From the NCBI GenBank assembly GCA_035995545.1, contig DASYKI010000016.1, positions 664,599 to 728,598 of the forward strand: DNA of 64,000 bases, in the 5' to 3' direction. This document shows, in pieces, positions 3,460-29,924 of this stretch (the first letter of the stretch is position 1; each line of letters opens with the position of its first letter). Position numbers and translations under genes: made by a program. This DNA comes from Candidatus Dormiibacterota bacterium (lineage in GTDB: Bacteria; Chloroflexota; Dormibacteria; Aeolococcales; Aeolococcaceae). The notes under the pieces are model-generated. The model was not told where the DNA came from. It worked only from the letters and a program-made list of their open reading frames with translations, and made no database searches.

Positions 3460-4311
3460 ATGCCAGGTGCAGTCGTGGTCACCGGTGCGTCGACCGGCAT
3501 CGGGCGCGCCATCGCGCTGCGGCTCAGCGCCGGTGGCATGCGCGTCTTCGCCGGGGTGCGTCGCCAGGAGGACGCCGACGCGCTGCGCCGCGAGTCGGCG
3601 CAGATCACCCCGCTGCTCCTCGACGTCACCGACCAGGCGTCTCTGGACCGAGCGGTCAGCACGGTGTCCGAGGCGGTGGGCGACGCCGGCCTGGCGGGCC
3701 TGGTCAACAACGCCGGCATCTCCGGCGGCGCGCCCACCGAGTTCTTCGCCGTCGACGACCTGCGCGCCATGCTGGAGGTCAACGTGGTCGGCGTCGTCGC
3801 CACCACCCAGGCGTTCCTGCCGCTGATCCGCACGGGGCGTGGACGCATCGTCTACATCGGTTCCATCGGCGGCCGCATGGCGGTGCCCTTCCTGGCCGCC
3901 TACTCGATGACCAAGGCGGCGGTGAGCGCGCTCTGCGACTCGCTGCGCGGCGAGCTGCGGCCCTGGGGCATCCACGTCGCGCTGATCGAGCCGGGCTCGA
4001 TCAAGACCCCGATCTGGGAGAAGGGCCTGCGCGGCATCGAGGACCAGATGGGACGCTGGCCCGCCGAGGCGATGCAGCTCTACGGCGACGTCATCCCCAA
4101 GATGCGCCGCATCACCGAGAAGACGGCGTCGCGCGCGATCGCGCCGGACAAGGTTGCCAAGGCCGTCGAGCACGCGCTCACGGCGTCGCGCCCGCACACC
4201 CGCTACGTGGTCGGCGCCGACGCGCGCGCCCAGGCCATCCTGCGCCGCGTCCCCGACCGCGCCCGCGACGCGATGATCGCACGCACCATCGGGCTGCAGA
4301 AGAAAACCTGA
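3460..4311 (+). CDS. SDR-family short-chain dehydrogenase/reductase
   Basis: ATG at 3460 (MPGAVVVTGASTGIGRA, Rossmann TGxxxGIG); YSMTKAAVSAL (YxxxK catalytic motif); the track ORF begins upstream at 3400 but the protein-like sequence starts at 3460. Confidence 0.8.
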   Translation: MPGAVVVTGASTGIGRAIALRLSAGGMRVFAGVRRQEDADALRRESAQITPLLLDVTDQASLDRAVSTVSEAVGDAGLAGLVNNAGISGGAPTEFFAVDDLRAMLEVNVVGVVATTQAFLPLIRTGRGRIVYIGSIGGRMAVPFLAAYSMTKAAVSALCDSLRGELRPWGIHVALIEPGSIKTPIWEKGLRGIEDQMGRWPAEAMQLYGDVIPKMRRITEKTASRAIAPDKVAKAVEHALTASRPHTRYVVGADARAQAILRRVPDRARDAMIARTIGLQKKT

Positions 4312-4341
4312 GCGGGGCTCTGGGGCGCCGCCCGTCATCGC

Positions 4342-4612
4342 GTGCCCGGTGCTAGCAGCCGCCGGGCCTCGCCTGCCGCGTGCCAGCAGCCGCCGGGTCC
4401 CCCCGCTCCCCGTGCTGGCAGCCGCCGAGTCACCCCGTACCCAGTGCTGGCAGCCGCCGGATCCCCGTGCCCGGTGCTGGCAGCCGCCGGATCCCCCATG
4501 CCCGGTGCTGGCAGCCGCCGGATCCCCGTGCCCGTGCTGGGAGCTGCCGAGTCCCCCGTAACCCCCGTGCTGGCAGCCGCCGGTCCCCCCGTACCCCGTG
4601 CTAGCAGCCGCC
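4342..4612. repeat. tandem direct-repeat array, ~9 copies of a ~30-bp unit (GTGCTGGCAGCCGCCGG + variable TCCCCGT(G/A)CCC tail)
   Basis: Read directly from the sequence. A 17-nt conserved core alternates with 12-16-nt related (not unique) tails. The array fills the convergent gap between the SDR (+) and the glycosidase-like gene (-) and overlaps that gene's last codons. Confidence 0.8.
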
Positions 4613-6724
4613 CGCAAAGTTCAACTGGTACACCGCGCCCGCACGAAGCGTGAGCATCACGCCCTGAGCCACCAGTTGCGCGGCAACGCGGTGCCCCGCC
4701 GAATCCACAGCACTCACCAGCCGCGAGCCCGCCATCGGCACCAGCAGGCGCCCCGGCACGGTGCTGGTCACCGTCCCATGCCAGTTCTGCGCGCAGGCCG
4801 GCGCCCGCACCACCAGCGCGTGCGCATGCGCGAAGGTCCGCGCCGTCACCGCCTTGCCCACCTCGTACTGCCACTCGCCCCCGGCAAGCGGCACCGGATG
4901 TCCCTGCCCCTTGATCGACGACAGCGACACCACCGCGCCCAACTGGTCCGTCAGCGCTGGCGTGATCGGCAAACCCCCAACCCAGGTCTTGCCGAAGTAC
5001 ATCGCCGGCGTGCCGTACACGGTGCTGGCGACGGTGTGCGGGATCACCGTGGTCGCGTCGACCTGCCAGCCGTCGCCGTCGATGAGCATGTCCGGGTTCA
5101 CCGCGGCGACCAGTGCCGCACGGCGATCCCACTCGGCTGTGCTCCAGGCGTCGTAGAGGCGCAGCGTGTCGGCCACCGCGGCGAACTGCGGCGCCGCCGC
5201 GCTGGCGTCGATCATCGCGTCGGGCCGCAGCCTGTGCGCCGAGCTGTGGATGGCGTCCATGTAGCGGTACAGCGCCAGCGCACCGTAGCCCCGCGCGGGA
5301 TTGCTGACCGTGGCCGGGATGTTGTACTGCCAGTCGAGCTTGAGCCCGTCGGCGGCCAATGCGTCGCCGCCCGAGCCCACCAGCGCCCCGACCGTTGCTG
5401 CCATCTCTGACTGGAACGACGTGGTGGTGGGGTCGATGAGGCGCTCGGGCGTGGCGGTGCGGGCCAGCTTGGCGGACAGCGGGATGGTGTCGATGCGGTG
5501 CGCCCACATCGGCCACCAGAGCAGGACGTGCAGTCCCTGGGCGTGCAGCTCGTCGATCAGCGCCCGCATCCCGGCGACGCCGCCGAAGCGCAGCGGGTCG
5601 GGCATGGGGTCGCCGATGCGCTCCTGCCAGCGCGAGTCGATGACCAGGGTGAAGTGGTCGACGTGGTACCGCGCCTTCCAGTCGGCGGCGAAGCTGCGCA
5701 CCCAGTCGGCGGTGAAGGCCGGGCTGCCGCGGAAGGCGTGCACGGCCATCTGCTCGCCCCAGGTGTCGACGATGGGCTCGCTCCACCACGCCGGGCGCGA
5801 GCCGGGCGGCGAAGCGACGGTGACCGCCTTCAGCCCCACCAGCGCGTCGTGGTAGGCGCGCAGCCCGGTCAGGGGGTCGGCGGCGAAGGTGACCACGAAG
5901 TCGGGGAAGCGCAGCATGCCCGCCTGGCCGGTGCCGGCGCCGAGGTCGGCCGTGGCGTCCACGCTGGCCAGCGGGTAGTCGATCGACACCGCGCCGTCGT
6001 GTCCCACCCGCATCGACGTCGCCGAGGGGACCTGGACCAGGCCGAGCCCCATCCAGCCGGGGGTGCCGCGGAGCTGCACCTGCAGCGGCGGCGGAGCGAA
6101 CGGGGTGCGGCCCACCGTCGACACCACCGGCGCCGGCGACACCGAGGTTGCCCGCGGGTCGGGCGTGTAGCCGTCCTGGATGGTGGTCATGTCCAGGCCG
6201 CGGTGGCCGTCGGCGAAGAAGCTGGGGGCGAGGGCGCGCTGCGGGCCGAGCGGCGCCGTGAACGAGACGGTGAAGCTGGACGGGCTCGGCGTCAGCGTCG
6301 CCTGGGAGAGGACGGTGCCGTCGGCGGCGACCATGGTGGTGGTCAGGACGTGGCCGGTCAGGGTGGTGTGGGCGTGGGCTCCGCTGGGGATGGCGGCGCG
6401 GCCGGCCAGGGCGCAGAGCGGCAGCGAGGTGTAGACGCGGCCGTCGGCCGAGGCCAGGCTGACCACCGCCGAATCGGGGTCGGCCCAGATCGCGTAGCCG
6501 GTCCCGGCGACGTGAAGCTCGGCGGCGCCCACCGCGGGGGTGACGTCGAAGCCCTCGAGGCGGTCCTCGGTGGGCTCGGCGGGAAGCGTGCGGGTGAAGG
6601 GATGCGCCTGGGCCACCCCGGCGACGCAGGCCCCGATGGTGACCACGGCGAACACCGCCGCACCGCGGTTGGCGCCGAGGCGCCGCGCGGTCGAGAGGAG
6701 GCGGGACGGGAGGGGTCTGCGCAT
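4601..6724 (-). CDS. secreted protein, putative glycoside-hydrolase-like (TIM-barrel) enzyme
   Basis: 707-aa ORF. The N-terminal signal peptide has a positively charged n-region, a hydrophobic core and a AQA cleavage-like site. The middle region (HFTLVIDSRWQ.., LHVLLWWPMW, LKLDWQYN) resembles clan GH-D-type (alpha/beta)8 glycosidases. The family assignment is not certain. Confidence 0.45.
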   Translation of the reverse strand: MRRPLPSRLLSTARRLGANRGAAVFAVVTIGACVAGVAQAHPFTRTLPAEPTEDRLEGFDVTPAVGAAELHVAGTGYAIWADPDSAVVSLASADGRVYTSLPLCALAGRAAIPSGAHAHTTLTGHVLTTTMVAADGTVLSQATLTPSPSSFTVSFTAPLGPQRALAPSFFADGHRGLDMTTIQDGYTPDPRATSVSPAPVVSTVGRTPFAPPPLQVQLRGTPGWMGLGLVQVPSATSMRVGHDGAVSIDYPLASVDATADLGAGTGQAGMLRFPDFVVTFAADPLTGLRAYHDALVGLKAVTVASPPGSRPAWWSEPIVDTWGEQMAVHAFRGSPAFTADWVRSFAADWKARYHVDHFTLVIDSRWQERIGDPMPDPLRFGGVAGMRALIDELHAQGLHVLLWWPMWAHRIDTIPLSAKLARTATPERLIDPTTTSFQSEMAATVGALVGSGGDALAADGLKLDWQYNIPATVSNPARGYGALALYRYMDAIHSSAHRLRPDAMIDASAAAPQFAAVADTLRLYDAWSTAEWDRRAALVAAVNPDMLIDGDGWQVDATTVIPHTVASTVYGTPAMYFGKTWVGGLPITPALTDQLGAVVSLSSIKGQGHPVPLAGGEWQYEVGKAVTARTFAHAHALVVRAPACAQNWHGTVTSTVPGRLLVPMAGSRLVSAVDSAGHRVAAQLVAQGVMLTLRAGAVYQLNFAGGC

Positions 6725-6751: not shown

Positions 6752-8401
6752 TCAAAAGCTTGGAACGGAGAGATCGCTGCGAATGTATACGCGATCGAGG
6801 GTCGAGCGATAGACCTCCCGGTAACTCGACAGCAGCAGCGGCTGGATGTCCGAGAAGTAGGCGAGGTCGTCCTCCTCGGTCACGATTATCTCCGGCCTCA
6901 GCTGGGCCACCCGTTTCGTTACGCCTCCGTTGGATTGCAGGAGCGACTCGTTGTTGTAGATGGGCGGCGTCGGAAGCAGAACGGGCAGGTCGGCGAGAAG
7001 ATACGGCCAGGCGTCCGAGGACCACACCACCGCGCTGTGGCCGGCCAGTCCGTGCTCGCGGATCCACGTCGAGACCGCCGTGTCGGCGGGGGCGCGCAGG
7101 TCCCACTCGGCCTCCCAGGAGCTCCAGGTGTGCTGCCCCGTCCAGGCCTGGAAGGCGCCCACGTAGTAGGTCGACAGGTTGCGATAGGTGTTCATGCCAG
7201 AGCTGGCACCTTCCGGAATCCATTCCACTCCCGCCGAACGCGCCAGAACACCGGCCAACAGCAGTCCGCCGACCAGTGGCGCGGCGGTGAGCAGCCGGGC
7301 GCGGTTGCCGAGCATCGATCGCCACGCGTCGCGGCGGTCGGGCAGCCCGGCCACCAGGGCGAGGCAGACCGGCACCACGGTGGGGCCGAGGAAGTGCGCG
7401 AAGGGTTGCTGCGCCGCAGCCGGAACTGTCAGCGTCGCAATCGCCCACACGGCGAGCATCCAGCCGCCACCTGAACTCGACCTGAATCGCGCCAGCACGG
7501 CACCGGCGACGGCCGCGGCGATGCACAGCGCGAGGAGGCCGAGCAGCACGGGGCCGTGGGCGCCGGGCAGCGAGCTGGCGTTGTAGTCGCCGGTGTAGAA
7601 GCCGACCAGCGCGTACCACAGGGTGTGTGGTCCGACCAGGATGGCGAAGGGGATGGCCCATGCCAGGGTTGCGCCGACCACCGTGGCCGCGTAGGTGAGC
7701 AGGTGGCGCGGCCGCGCGGCGGGATGGACAAGCAGGATCAGCCCGACGGCCGCGGTGTCGACCAGCGCGGTCTGCTGGTAGCAGAGGGCCGTGGCGGCGA
7801 GCAATCCGGCCGCGACGGGCCAGAGGTTGCCCGCGGTGCGGCGTTCGTGGAGGCGGACGATGACGATGGCGGCCACCCACGACGCCGGCGCGATGAGCAG
7901 CGACTCCGGCAGGATCAGCTCGGCGTCGAAGAGGGGAAGGCCCAGCATGACCCCGGTGACGAGCACCGCAGTTGCTGCCTTCCATGGCACGAACAGGTGG
8001 CGCGCGACGTAGGCGACCGCCGCCAGCGCGATGGCCGCGAAGACGAAGGTGAGCAGGTGCAGCGCCGTCTCAGTGCTGCCCAGGGTGTGCACCACGCTGC
8101 CGACGGTGGCGAGGTGGAGCGGGGGCTTGTTGTTCCAGATGTCCTTGTAGGGCAGCTTGCCGCTGAGCATCTCGCGGCCGGTGGCGGCGTAGCCGGCCTC
8201 GTCGGTGTACCAGTGCGGCTCGACGAAGCTGGGCAGGCGGAGCAGGGCGAAGGCAGTCGCGCCGGGCAGCCACCACAGGCGGCGCAGGCGGGATGGGGCG
8301 TGCCGCGTGCCGCTGCGGGCCTGCGCCGCCGGTCCGCCGGCGTGCGGCGATGCCTCGGCTGCGGCTTCGGCGGGCGGAGCGGGTGGGGTGTCGGCGGGCA
8401 C
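6752..8401 (-). CDS. GT-C fold glycosyltransferase, PMT/ArnT-like (GT39/GT83-like), polyprenol-phosphate-sugar dependent
   Basis: Multi-TM protein with loop-1 DE motif (HWYTDEAGYAATGREMLSGKLPYKDIWNNKPPL). The N-terminal part of the 6752..8920 track ORF is low-complexity. The start is probably the GTG near 8401 (VPADTPPAPP..), giving a Pro/Ala-rich tail before TM1. Confidence 0.6.
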   Translation of the reverse strand: MPADTPPAPPAEAAAEASPHAGGPAAQARSGTRHAPSRLRRLWWLPGATAFALLRLPSFVEPHWYTDEAGYAATGREMLSGKLPYKDIWNNKPPLHLATVGSVVHTLGSTETALHLLTFVFAAIALAAVAYVARHLFVPWKAATAVLVTGVMLGLPLFDAELILPESLLIAPASWVAAIVIVRLHERRTAGNLWPVAAGLLAATALCYQQTALVDTAAVGLILLVHPAARPRHLLTYAATVVGATLAWAIPFAILVGPHTLWYALVGFYTGDYNASSLPGAHGPVLLGLLALCIAAAVAGAVLARFRSSSGGGWMLAVWAIATLTVPAAAQQPFAHFLGPTVVPVCLALVAGLPDRRDAWRSMLGNRARLLTAAPLVGGLLLAGVLARSAGVEWIPEGASSGMNTYRNLSTYYVGAFQAWTGQHTWSSWEAEWDLRAPADTAVSTWIREHGLAGHSAVVWSSDAWPYLLADLPVLLPTPPIYNNESLLQSNGGVTKRVAQLRPEIIVTEEDDLAYFSDIQPLLLSSYREVYRSTLDRVYIRSDLSVPSF

Positions 8402-9233: not shown

Positions 9234-10170
9234 GGCGGACTGGAACCAGTCCAGGGTCTGGCGCAGGCCCTGCTCGATGGCGGTGTGCGCCTGCCAGTGC
9301 AGCCAGCGCCGGGCGCGGTTGGTGTCGAGGCAGCCGCGGCGCACCTCACCCTGGGCCGCTTCCTCGTGCAGTGGGGCGAGCCCGCTGCTGTGCAGGTTCG
9401 CCAGCGTGGTGACCACCGTGTCGACGCTGGTCTCGCGGCCGGTGCCGACGTTGACGGCGCCTGCGCGGTTGCTGCGCAATGCGGCGAGGTTGGCGGCGGC
9501 GACGTCGCCGACGAAGACGAAGTCGCGGGTCTGCAGGCCGTCGCCACGGATCACCGGCGCTTCACCGGCGAGCAGCTTGGTGCAGGAGATGGCCACAACT
9601 CCCGCCTCGCCGGTGCCGTCCTGCCTGGGCCCGTAGACGTTGCCGTATCGCAGCGCCAGGGTGCGCATGCCGGCGAGCCGGCGGAAGGACCCAAGGTAGG
9701 CCTCCTCGGCGGCCTTGCTGGCGCCGTACTGCGAGCGCGGCGCGGGTGTCAGGCTCTCGCGTGCGGGCAGGGTGCGCGCATCGCCATAGACGGCGCCGCC
9801 CGACGATGCGGTGACGATGCTCGGCACCTTCGCGTCGGCGGCAGCCTTGAAGAAGGCGATGCTGCTGGCCACCGCGGTGCGCACGTGGGTGGCGGGGTCG
9901 CGCAGCACCTTGTTGACACCGCCGCGCGCGGCGAGGTGGAGCACGGCGTCGGGCTTGAAGCGCAGCAGCGCGGTGGCGGTCGCGGGGTCGCCGCAGTCGG
10001 CTTCGAGGAGCTCGGCCTCGGCCGGCAGGGGGACGCCGCAGTCGTGCGAGAGGTCGTCGACGACCAGCACCTGGGTGCCCTCGGCGATCAGCGTCTCGAC
10101 GGTGTGGGAGCCGATGAAGCCCGCGCCGCCGCTGACGGCGACGCGGCGGGGGAGGGGGCGCGGGGTGGGG
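9222..10170 (-). CDS. NAD-dependent sugar epimerase/dehydratase (GalE-like)
   Basis: Carries the extended-SDR fingerprints VSGGAGFIGSH (Rossmann) and YGASKAAEE (YxxxK). It begins inside the 9222..11030 track ORF, probably at the GTG near 10170. Its 3' end overlaps the GT2 gene end by 12 bp. Confidence 0.75.
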
Positions 10171-10180
10171 GTGGCGCCCC

Positions 10181-11257
10181 TCAGCGCCACGCGGTGGCCC
10201 CGGCCTGGGCGGGCTTCGGCGCGGCGCCGGCGGCCGCTGCGGCTGCTGTCGCGCCTGCCCCCGCCGCCGCTGCCGTGTCGGCGGGGTCGTCCATCCGCTC
10301 GGGTTTGTCGCCGGCCATGGCGGCCGCGGCGGCGAGGCCGATGGGCAGGGTGACCGTGCCGCGCAGCAGCAGGGCCACGGTGGTGGCGATGCCGAACGGC
10401 GTCCCGGTGCGGAGCAGCAGGCCGACCACGATGGCGTCGGCCGGGCCGACCCCGAAGGGCAGGGCGCTGAGGCTGCCGCCGGCCTGGCTGAGCGCGTAGA
10501 CCCCGATCGCCGCGGCGAGGCCGTCGAGGTCGCCGCCGCCGAGCCCGGCGACGAGCAGGATGACCTGCAGCCCGCTGAGCACGAAGACCACCAGCGTGGT
10601 CAGGGTGAAGGTGAGCAGCAGGGGCGTGTCGCCGGCCAGGACCGCGACCTCGCTGCCCATGCGGCCGATGGCGCGGGTCCTCGTGCGCAGGAGCGGCAGC
10701 CGGGCCGCCGCGTTGAGCACGGCGGTGGATGCGACGCGGGCCTGCGGAACGTGGGCGATCGTCCAGGGCACGGCGATGGCCAGCCCGGCGCCGATGCACA
10801 GGCCGGCGACCACTCCCGGGCCGCCGATGGTCGGGCCGAAGAAGGCGGCGCCCGCCGCCAGCAGGAGGGCGAAGCTGAGGATGCGCTCGTAGACGACGGT
10901 GGCCACCCCGGTTGTGGCGGGGATGTCGTCGTCGCGGCGCCAGATCCAGGCGCGGACCAGGTCGCCACTGGCGGCGGGGGTCAGGCTGGAGAGCGTCTGC
11001 CCCGCGAGCTGGGCCTTGACCAGGCTCCACCAGCGGGGGCGCTGCTGCAGTCTCGCCAGCACGAGGCGCGTTCTCAGCGCGCGGACCAGGGTGATCGGGA
11101 CGTTGAGGCCCAGGGTGACGAGCAGCGCGGGGATGCTCAGCCGACCGAGGGCGACCCAGACGTGGGCCGGGCCGGCGCGCCAGAAGAGCACGCCGAGGAC
11201 CCCCACACCGACCAGGGCCGCCACGCGGTGCGAGGTGACCAGCGTTCGCAGGCGCAT
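10181..11257 (-). CDS. flippase-like polytopic membrane protein (lysylphosphatidylglycerol-synthase TM-region-like family)
   Basis: 358 aa with ~8 TM helices and an Ala-rich C-terminal tail. This family is commonly encoded next to GT2 polyprenol-phosphate glycosyltransferases. It lies directly upstream of, and is likely co-transcribed with, the epimerase. Confidence 0.55.
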   Translation of the reverse strand: MRLRTLVTSHRVAALVGVGVLGVLFWRAGPAHVWVALGRLSIPALLVTLGLNVPITLVRALRTRLVLARLQQRPRWWSLVKAQLAGQTLSSLTPAASGDLVRAWIWRRDDDIPATTGVATVVYERILSFALLLAAGAAFFGPTIGGPGVVAGLCIGAGLAIAVPWTIAHVPQARVASTAVLNAAARLPLLRTRTRAIGRMGSEVAVLAGDTPLLLTFTLTTLVVFVLSGLQVILLVAGLGGGDLDGLAAAIGVYALSQAGGSLSALPFGVGPADAIVVGLLLRTGTPFGIATTVALLLRGTVTLPIGLAAAAAMAGDKPERMDDPADTAAAAGAGATAAAAAAGAAPKPAQAGATAWR

Positions 11258-26865: not shown

Positions 26866-27351
26866 ATGCGGATCCTGGGCATGAATCATGCCGTTCTCTA
26901 CGTTCGCGACGCGCAGGTGACCGCGGCGTTCTACGAGGGCCTCCTCGATTTCTCGCGGGTCATCGACGACCCGCGCTTCGTCTTCATGCGAGCCAACGCC
27001 TCGCCCAACCACCACGACGTCGCCTTCTTCACCGTCGGAGCGCAGGCCGCTGACTCCGGCGCCGGACACAGCAGTGTCGGCCTCTACCACGTCGCCTGGG
27101 AGGTGCCCACCCTCGACGACCTCGTCGCCTGCAGGGACCGCCTGGTCGCGGCGGGTGCGCTGGTGGGAGCGAGCGACCACGGCGCCAACAAGTCCCTGTA
27201 CGCGAAGGATCCTGACGGCCTCGAGTTCGAGGTCATGTGGCTGGTGCCCGCCGATCGGTGGGGCGAGGAGGAGCACGAGGCGATCATCCGCCCGCTCCTC
27301 CTCGACGACGAGGTGGCCAGGGACCGCGAGCTCAGTGGGAGAGTGGGATGA
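26866..27351 (+). CDS. VOC (glyoxalase/bleomycin-resistance/dioxygenase) family protein
   Basis: MRILGMNHAVLYVRDAQVTAAFYEGLLDF..HHDVAFF..GLYHVAWEV..GASDHGANKSLYAKDPDGLEFEV - paired beta-alpha-beta-beta-beta modules. Confidence 0.6.
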   Translation: MRILGMNHAVLYVRDAQVTAAFYEGLLDFSRVIDDPRFVFMRANASPNHHDVAFFTVGAQAADSGAGHSSVGLYHVAWEVPTLDDLVACRDRLVAAGALVGASDHGANKSLYAKDPDGLEFEVMWLVPADRWGEEEHEAIIRPLLLDDEVARDRELSGRVG

Positions 27352-27773
27352 ACCCCGTCACCCGGGGTCCGTCCCAGCCCGGCCTGGACGGACGTGACGC
27401 GGCGGACGGTGCGGCGGAGCGCCACGTCTGGCTGGCATCGGACGCGGACGCCCACGTCGAGTCGTCGCCGGGTTTGCGCCGCCGCATCCTCACCGGCCGG
27501 GACATGATGGTCGCCATGTGGCGGATCCGGGCGGGGTCGGGGCCGACGCCCTACGGCAACCACGCCGGCAACGAGCAGTTCGGCATCATCCTGCGCGGCT
27601 CGCTCGACTTCCGAATCAACGGTGAGCGGCGCGTGCTCGGGCCTGGCGACGTGTACTGGGCGCCGCCCGGCTGCGACCACGGCGACAGCCGCTTCGCCGG
27701 CGACGCCGACTCCGACGAGTGCTGGATCGCCGACATCTTCTGTCCGCCACGCGAGGACTACCGCAATGGCTGA
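27348..27773 (+). CDS. cupin-domain protein
   Basis: ATG 27348 overlaps the VOC stop (ATGA). The cupin barrel has the GNHAGNEQFGIILRGSLDFRINGERRVLGPGDVYWAPPGCDHG motif pattern. Confidence 0.6.
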   Translation: MNPVTRGPSQPGLDGRDAADGAAERHVWLASDADAHVESSPGLRRRILTGRDMMVAMWRIRAGSGPTPYGNHAGNEQFGIILRGSLDFRINGERRVLGPGDVYWAPPGCDHGDSRFAGDADSDECWIADIFCPPREDYRNG

Positions 27774-27810
27774 GTTGCGCAATGGCTGAGTCGTGCAATG
27801 GCTGACTGGC
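27763..27810. repeat. 3 tandem copies of a 16-bp unit (CAATGGCTGAGTTGCG / CAATGGCTGAGTCGTG / CAATGGCTGACTGGCG) spanning the cupin stop and hyuA start
   Basis: Read from the sequence. Copy 1 holds the cupin stop (AAT GGC TGA). Copy 3 holds the hyuA start (ATG GCT GAC). Each of copies 1 and 2 also contains an ATG followed by an in-frame TGA 7 codons later. Confidence 0.85.
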
Positions 27811-29924
27811 GCCTGGCCGTCGACATCGGCGGCACCTTCACCGACGTGGTGCTGCTCGACGCGGCGTCGGGCCGCGTGCTCACCGAGAAGACGCTGACCA
27901 CACCCGCGGACCCGCTGCAGGGCCTGCGGCGCGGTGTCGACGCACTGCTGTCGCGCGCCGCGGTCGAGCCCCGCGCCATCTCGCGCGCCACGGTGCACGC
28001 GACCACGCTGGTGACCAACGCGCTGATCGAGGGCAAGGGTGCGCGTACGGCGCTGGTGACCACCAGCGGCTTCGCGGACACCCTGCTGATCCGCAACGAG
28101 CACCGCTACGACATGTACGACCTGCAGATCGAGTTCCCCCCACCACCGGTGCCGCGTGAACTCACCTTCGAGGTCGACGAGCGCACCACCGCTGAGGGCG
28201 AGCTGCGCCGCGTGCCGGATATGGCCGCCGTCGACGAGCTCGCCGAGCAGCTCCGGGCGGCGGACGTGCAGGCGGTCGCCGTCTGCTTTCTGCACAGCTA
28301 CGCAAATCCGGCCAACGAACGCGAGGTCGGTGCGCGCCTGGCCGAGCTGCTGAACGTGCCGGTGTGCGTCTCCAGCGACGTCGCGCCGCAGATCCGCGAG
28401 TATCCCCGCGCGGTGACCACCGCGTGCAACGCGATCACCATGCCACTGGTCAGCCGCTACCTCGGCGAGCTGTCCGCGTGGCTGCAGGAGCGTGGCATCG
28501 GCGCAGGGCTGCAGATCATGCTCAGCAACGGGGGAGTGGTCGCGCCCGACGTCGCCGTGCGCATGCCGGTCCGCCTCGTCGAGTCGGGACCCGCCGCCGG
28601 TGCCCTGGCGGGGGCCTGGTACGCCGAGCGGCTCGGGGAGAGCCGGCTGCTCTGCTTCGACATGGGCGGGACAACGGCCAAGGCGTGCCTGATCGAGGAC
28701 TTCGAGCCGGCCCTGGCGGTCGACTTCGAAGTCGCCCGGGTGTACCGCTTCAAGCGCGGGTCGGGATACCCGGTGACGGTGCCGTCCATCGACCTGGTGG
28801 AGATCGGCGCCGGCGGCGGCAGCCTGGCGCGGGTCGACAGCCTCGGCCTGCTCAAGGTCGGCCCGGAGTCGTCCGGCGCCGAGCCCGGGCCGGCGTGCTA
28901 CGCCCGTGGTGGCACGGCTGCCGCCGTGACCGACTGCGACCTGCTGCTCGGCTATCTCGACCCCGAGCACTTTCTCGGCGGCGACATGCGCCTCGACCGC
29001 ACGGCCGCGGAGCGCGCTGTGGCCGGCCTGGCCGGCGAGCTCGGAGTCACCGTCGAGGCCGCAGCCATGGGCGTCCACGAAGTTGTCAACCAGAACATGG
29101 CCGCCTCGGCGCGCATGCACGCGGTCGAGCGCGGTGTCGATCTTCGCGGTGTCACCCTGCTCGCCTTCGGCGGAGCCGGGCCCGTGCACGCCTGCGGTGT
29201 CGCCGAGCTGCTCCAGGCTGACCGCGTCGTCTTCCCTCCGGACGCCAGCGTGCTGAGCGCCTTCGGCACCCTGGTCACTCCCATGCGCGTCGACCTCGCG
29301 CGCACGCTGGTGCGCCCGCTCGACGGAGTCGACGCTGCCGAGCGTGACGCTCTCCTCGCCGAACTGCGCGACGACGCTGTGCGCTCGCTGCAGAGTGCCG
29401 GCATCGAGGCCGCCGACATCCGGGTGCGCTACGGCGTGGACGCGCGCTACACGGGCCAGGGCCACGAGATCACGGTGTGGCTGGGCGAGGGCGACGGCTG
29501 GCCGGTCGATGCCGCGGAGGCGCAGCGGCGATTCGAGGAGGAGTACGCCCGCGTCTACGGACTCTCCATCGGCGGCATCCCCGTCGAGGTGGTCACCTGG
29601 CGTGTCGCCGTGTACGCGCCGGCGCCTGCACTGGACCGGCGCGGCGCGGCGCCGGCCGGCGAGGCGCAGCAACCCCGGCATCGCCTCGCCCACTTCGGCC
29701 GCAGCTCGCCGCCGGTGGAGGTGCCGGTGTTCGAGCGCCAGGCACTTGCGGTGGGGACGGTGATCGACGGTCCCGCCGTGGTCGAGCAGCGCGACACCAC
29801 CACGGTGCTGCGTCCCGGCTGGCGCGCCACGGTGGCGCCGGACGGGTCGCTCCTCGCCGTCCGTGTCGCCGTGGCCGGTGCCGTTCCCGCGCTCACCGAC
29901 CTCGCCGGCATCGCCGGTGCCTGA
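27798..29924 (+). CDS. hyuA: hydantoinase/oxoprolinase family protein, A subunit (ATP-dependent N-methylhydantoinase A / acetone-carboxylase-beta-like)
   Basis: 708 aa; N-terminal AVDIGGTFTDVVL (ASKHA ATPase fold), conserved Hydantoinase_A core. Confidence 0.85.
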   Translation: MADWRLAVDIGGTFTDVVLLDAASGRVLTEKTLTTPADPLQGLRRGVDALLSRAAVEPRAISRATVHATTLVTNALIEGKGARTALVTTSGFADTLLIRNEHRYDMYDLQIEFPPPPVPRELTFEVDERTTAEGELRRVPDMAAVDELAEQLRAADVQAVAVCFLHSYANPANEREVGARLAELLNVPVCVSSDVAPQIREYPRAVTTACNAITMPLVSRYLGELSAWLQERGIGAGLQIMLSNGGVVAPDVAVRMPVRLVESGPAAGALAGAWYAERLGESRLLCFDMGGTTAKACLIEDFEPALAVDFEVARVYRFKRGSGYPVTVPSIDLVEIGAGGGSLARVDSLGLLKVGPESSGAEPGPACYARGGTAAAVTDCDLLLGYLDPEHFLGGDMRLDRTAAERAVAGLAGELGVTVEAAAMGVHEVVNQNMAASARMHAVERGVDLRGVTLLAFGGAGPVHACGVAELLQADRVVFPPDASVLSAFGTLVTPMRVDLARTLVRPLDGVDAAERDALLAELRDDAVRSLQSAGIEAADIRVRYGVDARYTGQGHEITVWLGEGDGWPVDAAEAQRRFEEEYARVYGLSIGGIPVEVVTWRVAVYAPAPALDRRGAAPAGEAQQPRHRLAHFGRSSPPVEVPVFERQALAVGTVIDGPAVVEQRDTTTVLRPGWRATVAPDGSLLAVRVAVAGAVPALTDLAGIAGA

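Follow-up and report, generated by a model that had tools for sequence, protein, structure and literature searches.

A short tandem repeat lies between two convergent genes of the window, by which we mean the whole 64-kb stretch analysed here (a Candidatus Dormibacteraeota MAG from soil, 71% G+C), and one end of it runs across the stop codon of a 707-aa reading frame. This raises the question of which came first. Either the array supplies the gene with its last codons and stop, as an earlier note on this DNA had supposed, or the gene end is the older element and the array was built from it. The convergent stops, the TGA of the plus-strand gene at 4309-4311 and the TAG of the minus-strand gene at 4601-4603, are separated by 289 nt, and the locus divides into the following features.

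3460-4311, plus strand: convergent short-chain dehydrogenase/reductase (SDR) gene, from the Pfam match to adh_short (E 6e-46) and the stop position compared with orthologues
4312-4332, no strand: non-repeated rest of the spacer, adjoining the SDR stop, from the sequence and unit parsing
4341-4614, minus strand: whole tandem array, nine units of 29-33 nt, from Tandem Repeats Finder, core search, repeat families and unit parsing
4333-4394, minus strand: units 8 (TGG) and 9 (TAG), the most diverged, on the SDR side, from unit parsing and unit similarity
4395-4581, minus strand: units 2-7, with CAG instead of a stop, from unit parsing and unit similarity
4430-4432, minus strand: in-frame TGA, from unit parsing
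4582-4612, minus strand: unit 1, gene-proximal and the putative founder, GGCGGCTGC TAG CACGGGGTACGGGGGGACC, with GGCGGCTGC and a stop found also in repeat-free orthologues
4601-4603, minus strand: TAG stop of the 707-aa gene, in its ancestral position, from open reading frames, homologue C-termini and orthologous loci
4601-6724, minus strand: gene for a 707-aa signal/TM-anchored protein with a predicted glycoside-hydrolase-like fold, from the predicted structure and alignment

The product of the minus-strand gene is 100% identical to HEV7679802.1 (VGQ42_14660) and gave no Pfam match and no PDB sequence match. Its AlphaFold model, which is of only moderate confidence (pLDDT 69, pTM 0.59), consists of an N-terminal helix, a β-sandwich, a TIM barrel ((β/α)8) and a C-terminal β-sandwich. 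The best Foldseek match of this model was 8x1b, a galactosaminidase from F. plautii (E 2e-19, TM 0.45-0.48), followed by GH27, GH31, GH36 and GH97 enzymes, and the predicted fold is accordingly of the GH36/GH31/GH97/GH27 type. On this model the description of the gene as 'secreted glycosidase-like' is reasonable, with moderate confidence. The gene is preceded by genes for an LPG_synthase_TM protein, an epimerase, a GT2 enzyme and a PMT_2-like glycosyltransferase. The neighbourhood of the array as a whole holds SDR, GNAT, EamA transporter, PMT_2-like glycosyltransferase, GT2 and epimerase genes. The 707-aa family comprises 103 homologues, is restricted to Dormibacterota/Chloroflexota and is without a Pfam domain; in most members, down to about 45% identity, a Cys is the very last residue. 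In the 24 closest homologues aligned, C644, which lies ~63 residues upstream of the C-terminal C707, is invariant, as is C707 itself. This suggests a C644-C707 disulfide that would pin the C-terminus of the last β-sandwich of an extracytoplasmic enzyme.

The presence of a tandem array in the convergent gap was confirmed with Tandem Repeats Finder, which reported 4341-4612 with a period of 31, 8.7 copies, 79% matches and a score of 253; the runner-up array of the window scores only 74. A 17-nt core, GTGCTGGCAGCCGCCGG, occurs nine times in the array with at most 3 mismatches, at plus-strand positions 4349, 4380, 4412, 4444, 4474, 4505, 4534, 4567 and 4598, a spacing of 29-33 nt. Core matches in the whole window number 13, where 1.96 are expected, a total not attained in any of 100 shuffles; the four outside the array are scattered, with 3 mismatches each. 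Tandem Repeats Finder alternatively read the same array with a period of 93 (score 297). A higher-order repeat of 93 nt (31 codons) was rejected, as units three positions apart are not the most alike, which makes the longer period merely 3 x 31, and the frame has stops.

Read in the sense of the 707-aa gene (minus strand), each unit consists of GGCGGCTGC[C/T][A/G]GCAC and a tail with two G-runs. The array abuts the gene end, as had been noted: unit 1 contains the Gly-Gly-Cys codons and the stop, and overlaps the last four codons (A-G-G-C) together with the TAG. The triplet that follows GGC GGC TGC is TAG in unit 1, CAG in units 2-7, TGG in unit 8 and again TAG in unit 9. Successive units measure 31, 33, 29, 31, 30, 32, 32 and 31 nt, and the last merges into unique sequence; the indels that account for these length differences are located in the G-runs. 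Whole units, with their 12-16-nt tails included, are pairwise 66-93% alike, so that there are no unique spacers. The central units 3-5 reach 83-93%, which suggests a recent expansion, and the edge units 66-80%; a homogeneous centre with diverged edges is the usual pattern of an expanding array. Three separate assemblies (JGI 3300035673, Logan SRR11678605 and the NCBI MAG window) agree on every base of the array, which makes an assembler artefact unlikely, and these three appear to derive from one sample and hence from one sampled population. Exact-protein look-ups with both flanking genes returned the same contigs only.

We evaluated the age of the stop by comparison with the gene's relatives. 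Among the 26 closest homologues listed, the last three residues are GGC in 24 and GAC in one, and the remaining homologue is also Cys-terminal. No homologue in an alignment of 24 departs from G705 or C707, and G706 is kept in at least 90%. Consistent with this, at 11 orthologous loci (62-73% protein identity) that have the same convergent SDR neighbour, the gene ends in ggcggctgc or ggtggctgc followed by TGA or TAG. The stop-to-stop gap at these loci is -4 to 22 nt, and the repeats, present in the window, are absent from all 11. The SDR stop is likewise in its ancestral place (...TIGLPKKA* in relatives, ...TIGLQKKT* in the window), and the flanks of the array are collinear with the orthologous loci and contain no inserted genes. 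Given that the same terminal GGC and stop occur in repeat-free relatives, the stop is ancestral, and the internal CAG and TGG units are copies that lost the stop. On the same comparisons, GGCGGCTGC with its stop is ancestral coding sequence kept by selection on the protein, and the repeat core is a copy of these last codons and stop; amplification of the core is confined to the window's lineage. The causal order proposed earlier is thereby reversed, since a stop that is ancestral at 11 repeat-free loci was not supplied by the array. The related claim that a chance G/A difference in one unit alone accounts for the TAG also fails, as GGC or GAC forms the C-terminus of 25 of the 26 closest homologues listed.

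In the two closest relatives the spacer measures 69 nt (L112, 91% protein identity) and 50 nt (L001, 87%), compared with the 289 nt of the window, and in both it exceeds that of every other orthologue (at most 22 nt). These two spacers are G-rich (L112 2264-2332, L001 12131-12180), contain several CGGCGGC motifs and have the same stop upstream. When the L001 spacer was aligned locally to the tail of unit 1 and the start of unit 2, GACGGGGAGACGGGGAAAACC--CGGTTGCCAG was paired with CACGGGG-TACGGGG-GGACCGGCGGCTGCCAG, which weakly suggests that a partial direct repeat was already present and may have seeded slippage. A search for approximate cores, allowing 4 edits, found no second core in L001, and its match in L112 was no better than chance; with no second unit above background in either, the hint of a 'proto-repeat' is that of the local alignment. 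On these spacer lengths, expansion of the intergenic spot predates the 31-nt array. The earlier alternative of a 'variable-number intergenic array' fits in the comparison between species, the three closest lineages having 50, 69 and 289 nt.

These data allow us to propose, with a probability of about 0.8, that the array is a young, lineage-specific, noncoding minisatellite that arose by tandem amplification of the end of the 707-aa gene. The amplified segment would have been ~31 bp long, comprising three or four terminal codons, the stop and ~17 nt of the sequence directly after it, and would have been multiplied in tandem by replication slippage or unequal recombination, of which we infer slippage. 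The gene-proximal unit would be the original gene end and would retain the ancestral stop, so that the protein is left unchanged. The other eight units would be untranslated, their stop having drifted to CAG or TGG and the lengths of their G-runs through homopolymer slippage. The net effect would have been that a gap of about 10 nt between the convergent stops grew to 289 nt.

The principal alternatives differ in whether the array is, or was, translated, and in whether it acts as nucleic acid. According to the earlier note every minus frame through the array encodes low-complexity peptide, and the repeats might be what remains of a repetitive C-terminal tail. The first point is correct for two minus frames, which are open and encode a Gly/Ala/Cys/Gln/Arg-rich peptide, but not for the gene frame, which is stopped by TAG at 4601-4603, TGA at 4430-4432 and TAG at 4352-4354. 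Two open minus frames are, moreover, the default expectation for DNA of 78% G+C. The unit lengths are not multiples of 3, so that the frame rotates from unit to unit; the array has neither one open frame throughout nor a repeated peptide, and it is without coding periodicity. Glycosidase homologues with a repetitive C-terminal extension were looked for, and a repeat-encoded tail is absent from every homologue listed; those that extend past the terminal Cys (P0027, P0028, P0038 and P0043) have short, non-repetitive additions. Relatives with the same stop position and without repeats, the finding that the note itself had named as contrary to its proposal, do exist, the stop being ancestral in all close orthologues and the repeat-free relatives having almost no spacer. 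A degenerate coding tail is ruled out by the unit lengths, the in-frame TGA, the ancestral stop and the tail-less homologues, and we give it hardly any credence. A second coding role would be that of a contingency locus. A change of TAG to CAG in unit 1 would append 57 residues after Cys707 (QHGVRGDRRLPARGLRG...), ending at the TGA at 4430-4432, and gene conversion or recombination between the TAG-bearing first unit and the internal CAG units could in principle toggle this extension and so bury the conserved terminal cysteine. The units are indeed near-identical around the stop, with a single base separating TAG from CAG, and the invariant terminal Cys is probably functionally constrained. However, no listed homologue has such an extension, the triplet of unit 1 is TAG in all three assemblies of the one sampled population, and the extension would draw on three reading frames, shifting from one to another, and hold no conserved peptide. 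We consider a switch of this kind very unlikely.

A noncoding function would be that of a transcription insulator or terminator between the convergent genes. In this model, a Rho loading (rut-like) region would be provided by the C-rich plus-strand RNA that follows the SDR gene, and the G-rich minus-strand DNA or RNA, in the 3' UTR of the glycosidase-like gene, would act as a G-quadruplex or R-loop roadblock or as 3'-end protection. The absence of any intrinsic terminator (hairpin plus T run; 0 sites in 3800-5200) means that another mode of termination is needed in any case, and at the 100-250-nt scale the G4Hunter-type score of the array, whose minus strand is rich in G-runs, is the most extreme of the window. 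The minus strand also contains three G-tract motifs, each with one long central loop (18-20 nt required), and the plus strand is 46% C and 32% G. Against this, the array has no canonical G-quadruplex (four tracts of at least three G, loops of 1-7 nt), and the ViennaRNA G-quadruplex model places no quadruplex in the minimum-energy fold, whereas shuffled sequences gain 11.8 kcal/mol from quadruplexes on average. A G-quadruplex is not supported, extreme as the G-run asymmetry is. The rut-like excess of C over G is present yet unremarkable at 80 nt, the plain GC skew of the array being surpassed in 19% of 80-nt windows. Furthermore, at the 11 orthologous loci the stops lie only -4 to 22 nt apart, so that an insulating element is not required. 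The G-run/C-run strand asymmetry could still be relevant to transcription, and we rate the insulator as unlikely, though it is the least improbable of these alternatives. The array may instead belong to a repeat family scattered over the genome, of a REP/BIME-, MIRU- or CRISPR-like kind, or to a mobile element. The core does contain short palindromes (GCTG-G-CAGC, CCGG, GGATCC), and our direct view of the genome covers only 64 kb. The hairpin stability is nevertheless not in excess, the supposed spacers resemble each other, the flanks are collinear with the orthologues and without inserted genes, and no further copies were found in the window and no arrays in the genome, metagenome and viral collections. 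We regard this origin as very improbable, much as for the contingency locus.

The searches for further copies and for signals bear on these alternatives as follows. There are no unit copies beyond chance in the rest of the window. The unit pattern CGGCGGCTGCCAGCACNGGG (19 specified bases) gave 83 single matches in unrelated taxa when searched against one genome per species for 185,579 species, a result consistent with chance; the sole match in Dormibacterota (L039) lies inside a long ORF with no repeat around it. A two-core pattern returned 0 matches in metagenome contigs and 0 in viral contigs. The species-genome and metagenome scans missed the source organism's own array (the JGI contig, L002, was not recovered by the two-core pattern), so that they exclude a widespread family and are compatible with a species-private one. 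Within 245 kb of Dormibacterota DNA no other array combines a short period with multiple copies. The remaining high-scoring arrays in these 245 kb repeat every 126-255 nt, always a multiple of 3, which indicates coding domain repeats. Long repeats of this kind lie near the orthologous locus in related contigs (L108 4994-5739; L093, L094 and L098 at about 7155-7710) and are presumably repeated protein domains.

RNA folding was no better than that of dinucleotide shuffles on either strand (z +1.26 and +0.75), and the Rfam 15 covariance models gave 0 matches at E<=1 in 4000-5000 on both strands. A structured RNA was rejected on these grounds, both z-scores being above 0 and Rfam empty. No stable stem-loop per unit, as expected of REP/BIME elements, was found, and no sigma-70-like promoter was found near the array. 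The array is thus without structure or known motifs. From this absence of detectable signals we infer that the proposed minisatellite is near-neutral, and it probably has no sequence-specific function. Elsewhere in the window, the plus strand at 10148-10174 reads GGGGGAGGGGGCGCGGGGTGGGGGTGG, a canonical G-quadruplex motif of four tracts with the top 25-nt G4Hunter-type score of the window (3.0); the ORF at 10181-11257 (minus strand) ends next to it.

Arrays of this kind are ordinary and belong to an already known class, and this one matters little beyond documentation. As documentation, it is a clean, datable example of the birth of a bacterial minisatellite from a gene's last codons and stop, in which the repeat-free orthologues fix the ancestral state and the sister lineages show intermediate spacer lengths. 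For annotators and sequence readers it is a caution that, where a repeat runs across a stop codon, the gene end may be the source and the repeat the copy, rather than the reverse. It would also be a candidate strain-typing (VNTR) marker if strains of this uncultured Dormibacterota species come to be compared. More would follow if the copies of the gene's own stop region were functional, either as a TAG/CAG recombination switch that adds the 57-residue tail or as a de novo strand-asymmetric G-run/C-run insulator, which we judge to be a distinctly improbable outcome. The insulator would separate two convergent transcription units that overlap head-on in all relatives, and the switch would place a 57-residue tail on a secreted glycosidase of the envelope in which the terminal cysteine is otherwise invariant.

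Comparison with known systems places the array among bacterial minisatellites. A search of the literature on tandem repeats in Dormibacterota and on MIRU-like, stop-overlapping repeats found nothing useful. CRISPR loci resemble the array in having a conserved, regularly spaced core. Unlike in CRISPR, the core here is only 17 nt long and the 12-16-nt intervals are variants of one sequence, whole 41-nt registers being 66-93% alike; SDR, GNAT, EamA and glycan-synthesis genes take the place of adjacent cas genes. The exclusion of a CRISPR in the earlier note was therefore sound.

MIRUs are reportedly intergenic units of tens of bp whose ends overlap flanking stop and start codons. They are said to be dispersed over some 40 loci between co-directional operon genes, and to carry small ORFs that maintain translational coupling. 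As in MIRUs, the array is an intergenic tandem repeat that overlaps the terminus of a flanking gene. It differs in being a single locus, as far as the searches reach, in lying between convergent genes and in having no ORF logic: it has neither co-directional neighbours nor mini-ORFs overlapping a stop and a start, and no unit was found elsewhere in the window or in the public collections, where the source's own array was itself missed. Closer to MIRU logic than the array at 4341-4614 is a second case of gene-terminus tandem copying in the window, a 16-nt unit (CGCAATGGCTGAGTNG) in 2.8 tandem copies at 27762-27805. It joins a cupin gene (27237-27773, plus strand) to a hydantoinase/oxoprolinase A gene (27798-29924, plus strand), with ATGs at 27766, 27782 and 27798, and the first ATGGCTGA shares bases with the cupin stop (AAT GGC TGA, 27771-27773). 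Mini-ORFs of 7 codons, MAELRNG* and MAESCNG*, result from the two additional copies, and the stop of each overlaps the ATG that follows. This cupin/hydantoinase junction looks like a triplicated stop/start overlap that would preserve translational coupling, in the manner of a MIRU.

Minisatellites consist of tandem units of roughly 10-100 bp and arise from slippage or unequal recombination. The array, with head-to-tail copies of a unit in this size range at a frequency above chance, behaves as a generic bacterial minisatellite/VNTR, known from one sampled population. Like intergenic minisatellites and VNTRs of bacteria, it has noncoding head-to-tail units of ~31 nt with a homogenised centre and diverged edges, and the length of the site differs strongly among the closest lineages (50, 69 and 289 nt), a comparison made here between species, whereas the defining trait of a VNTR is variation in copy number within a species. 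What sets it apart from generic minisatellites is that its founder unit can be shown to be a gene's 3' end together with the stop codon.
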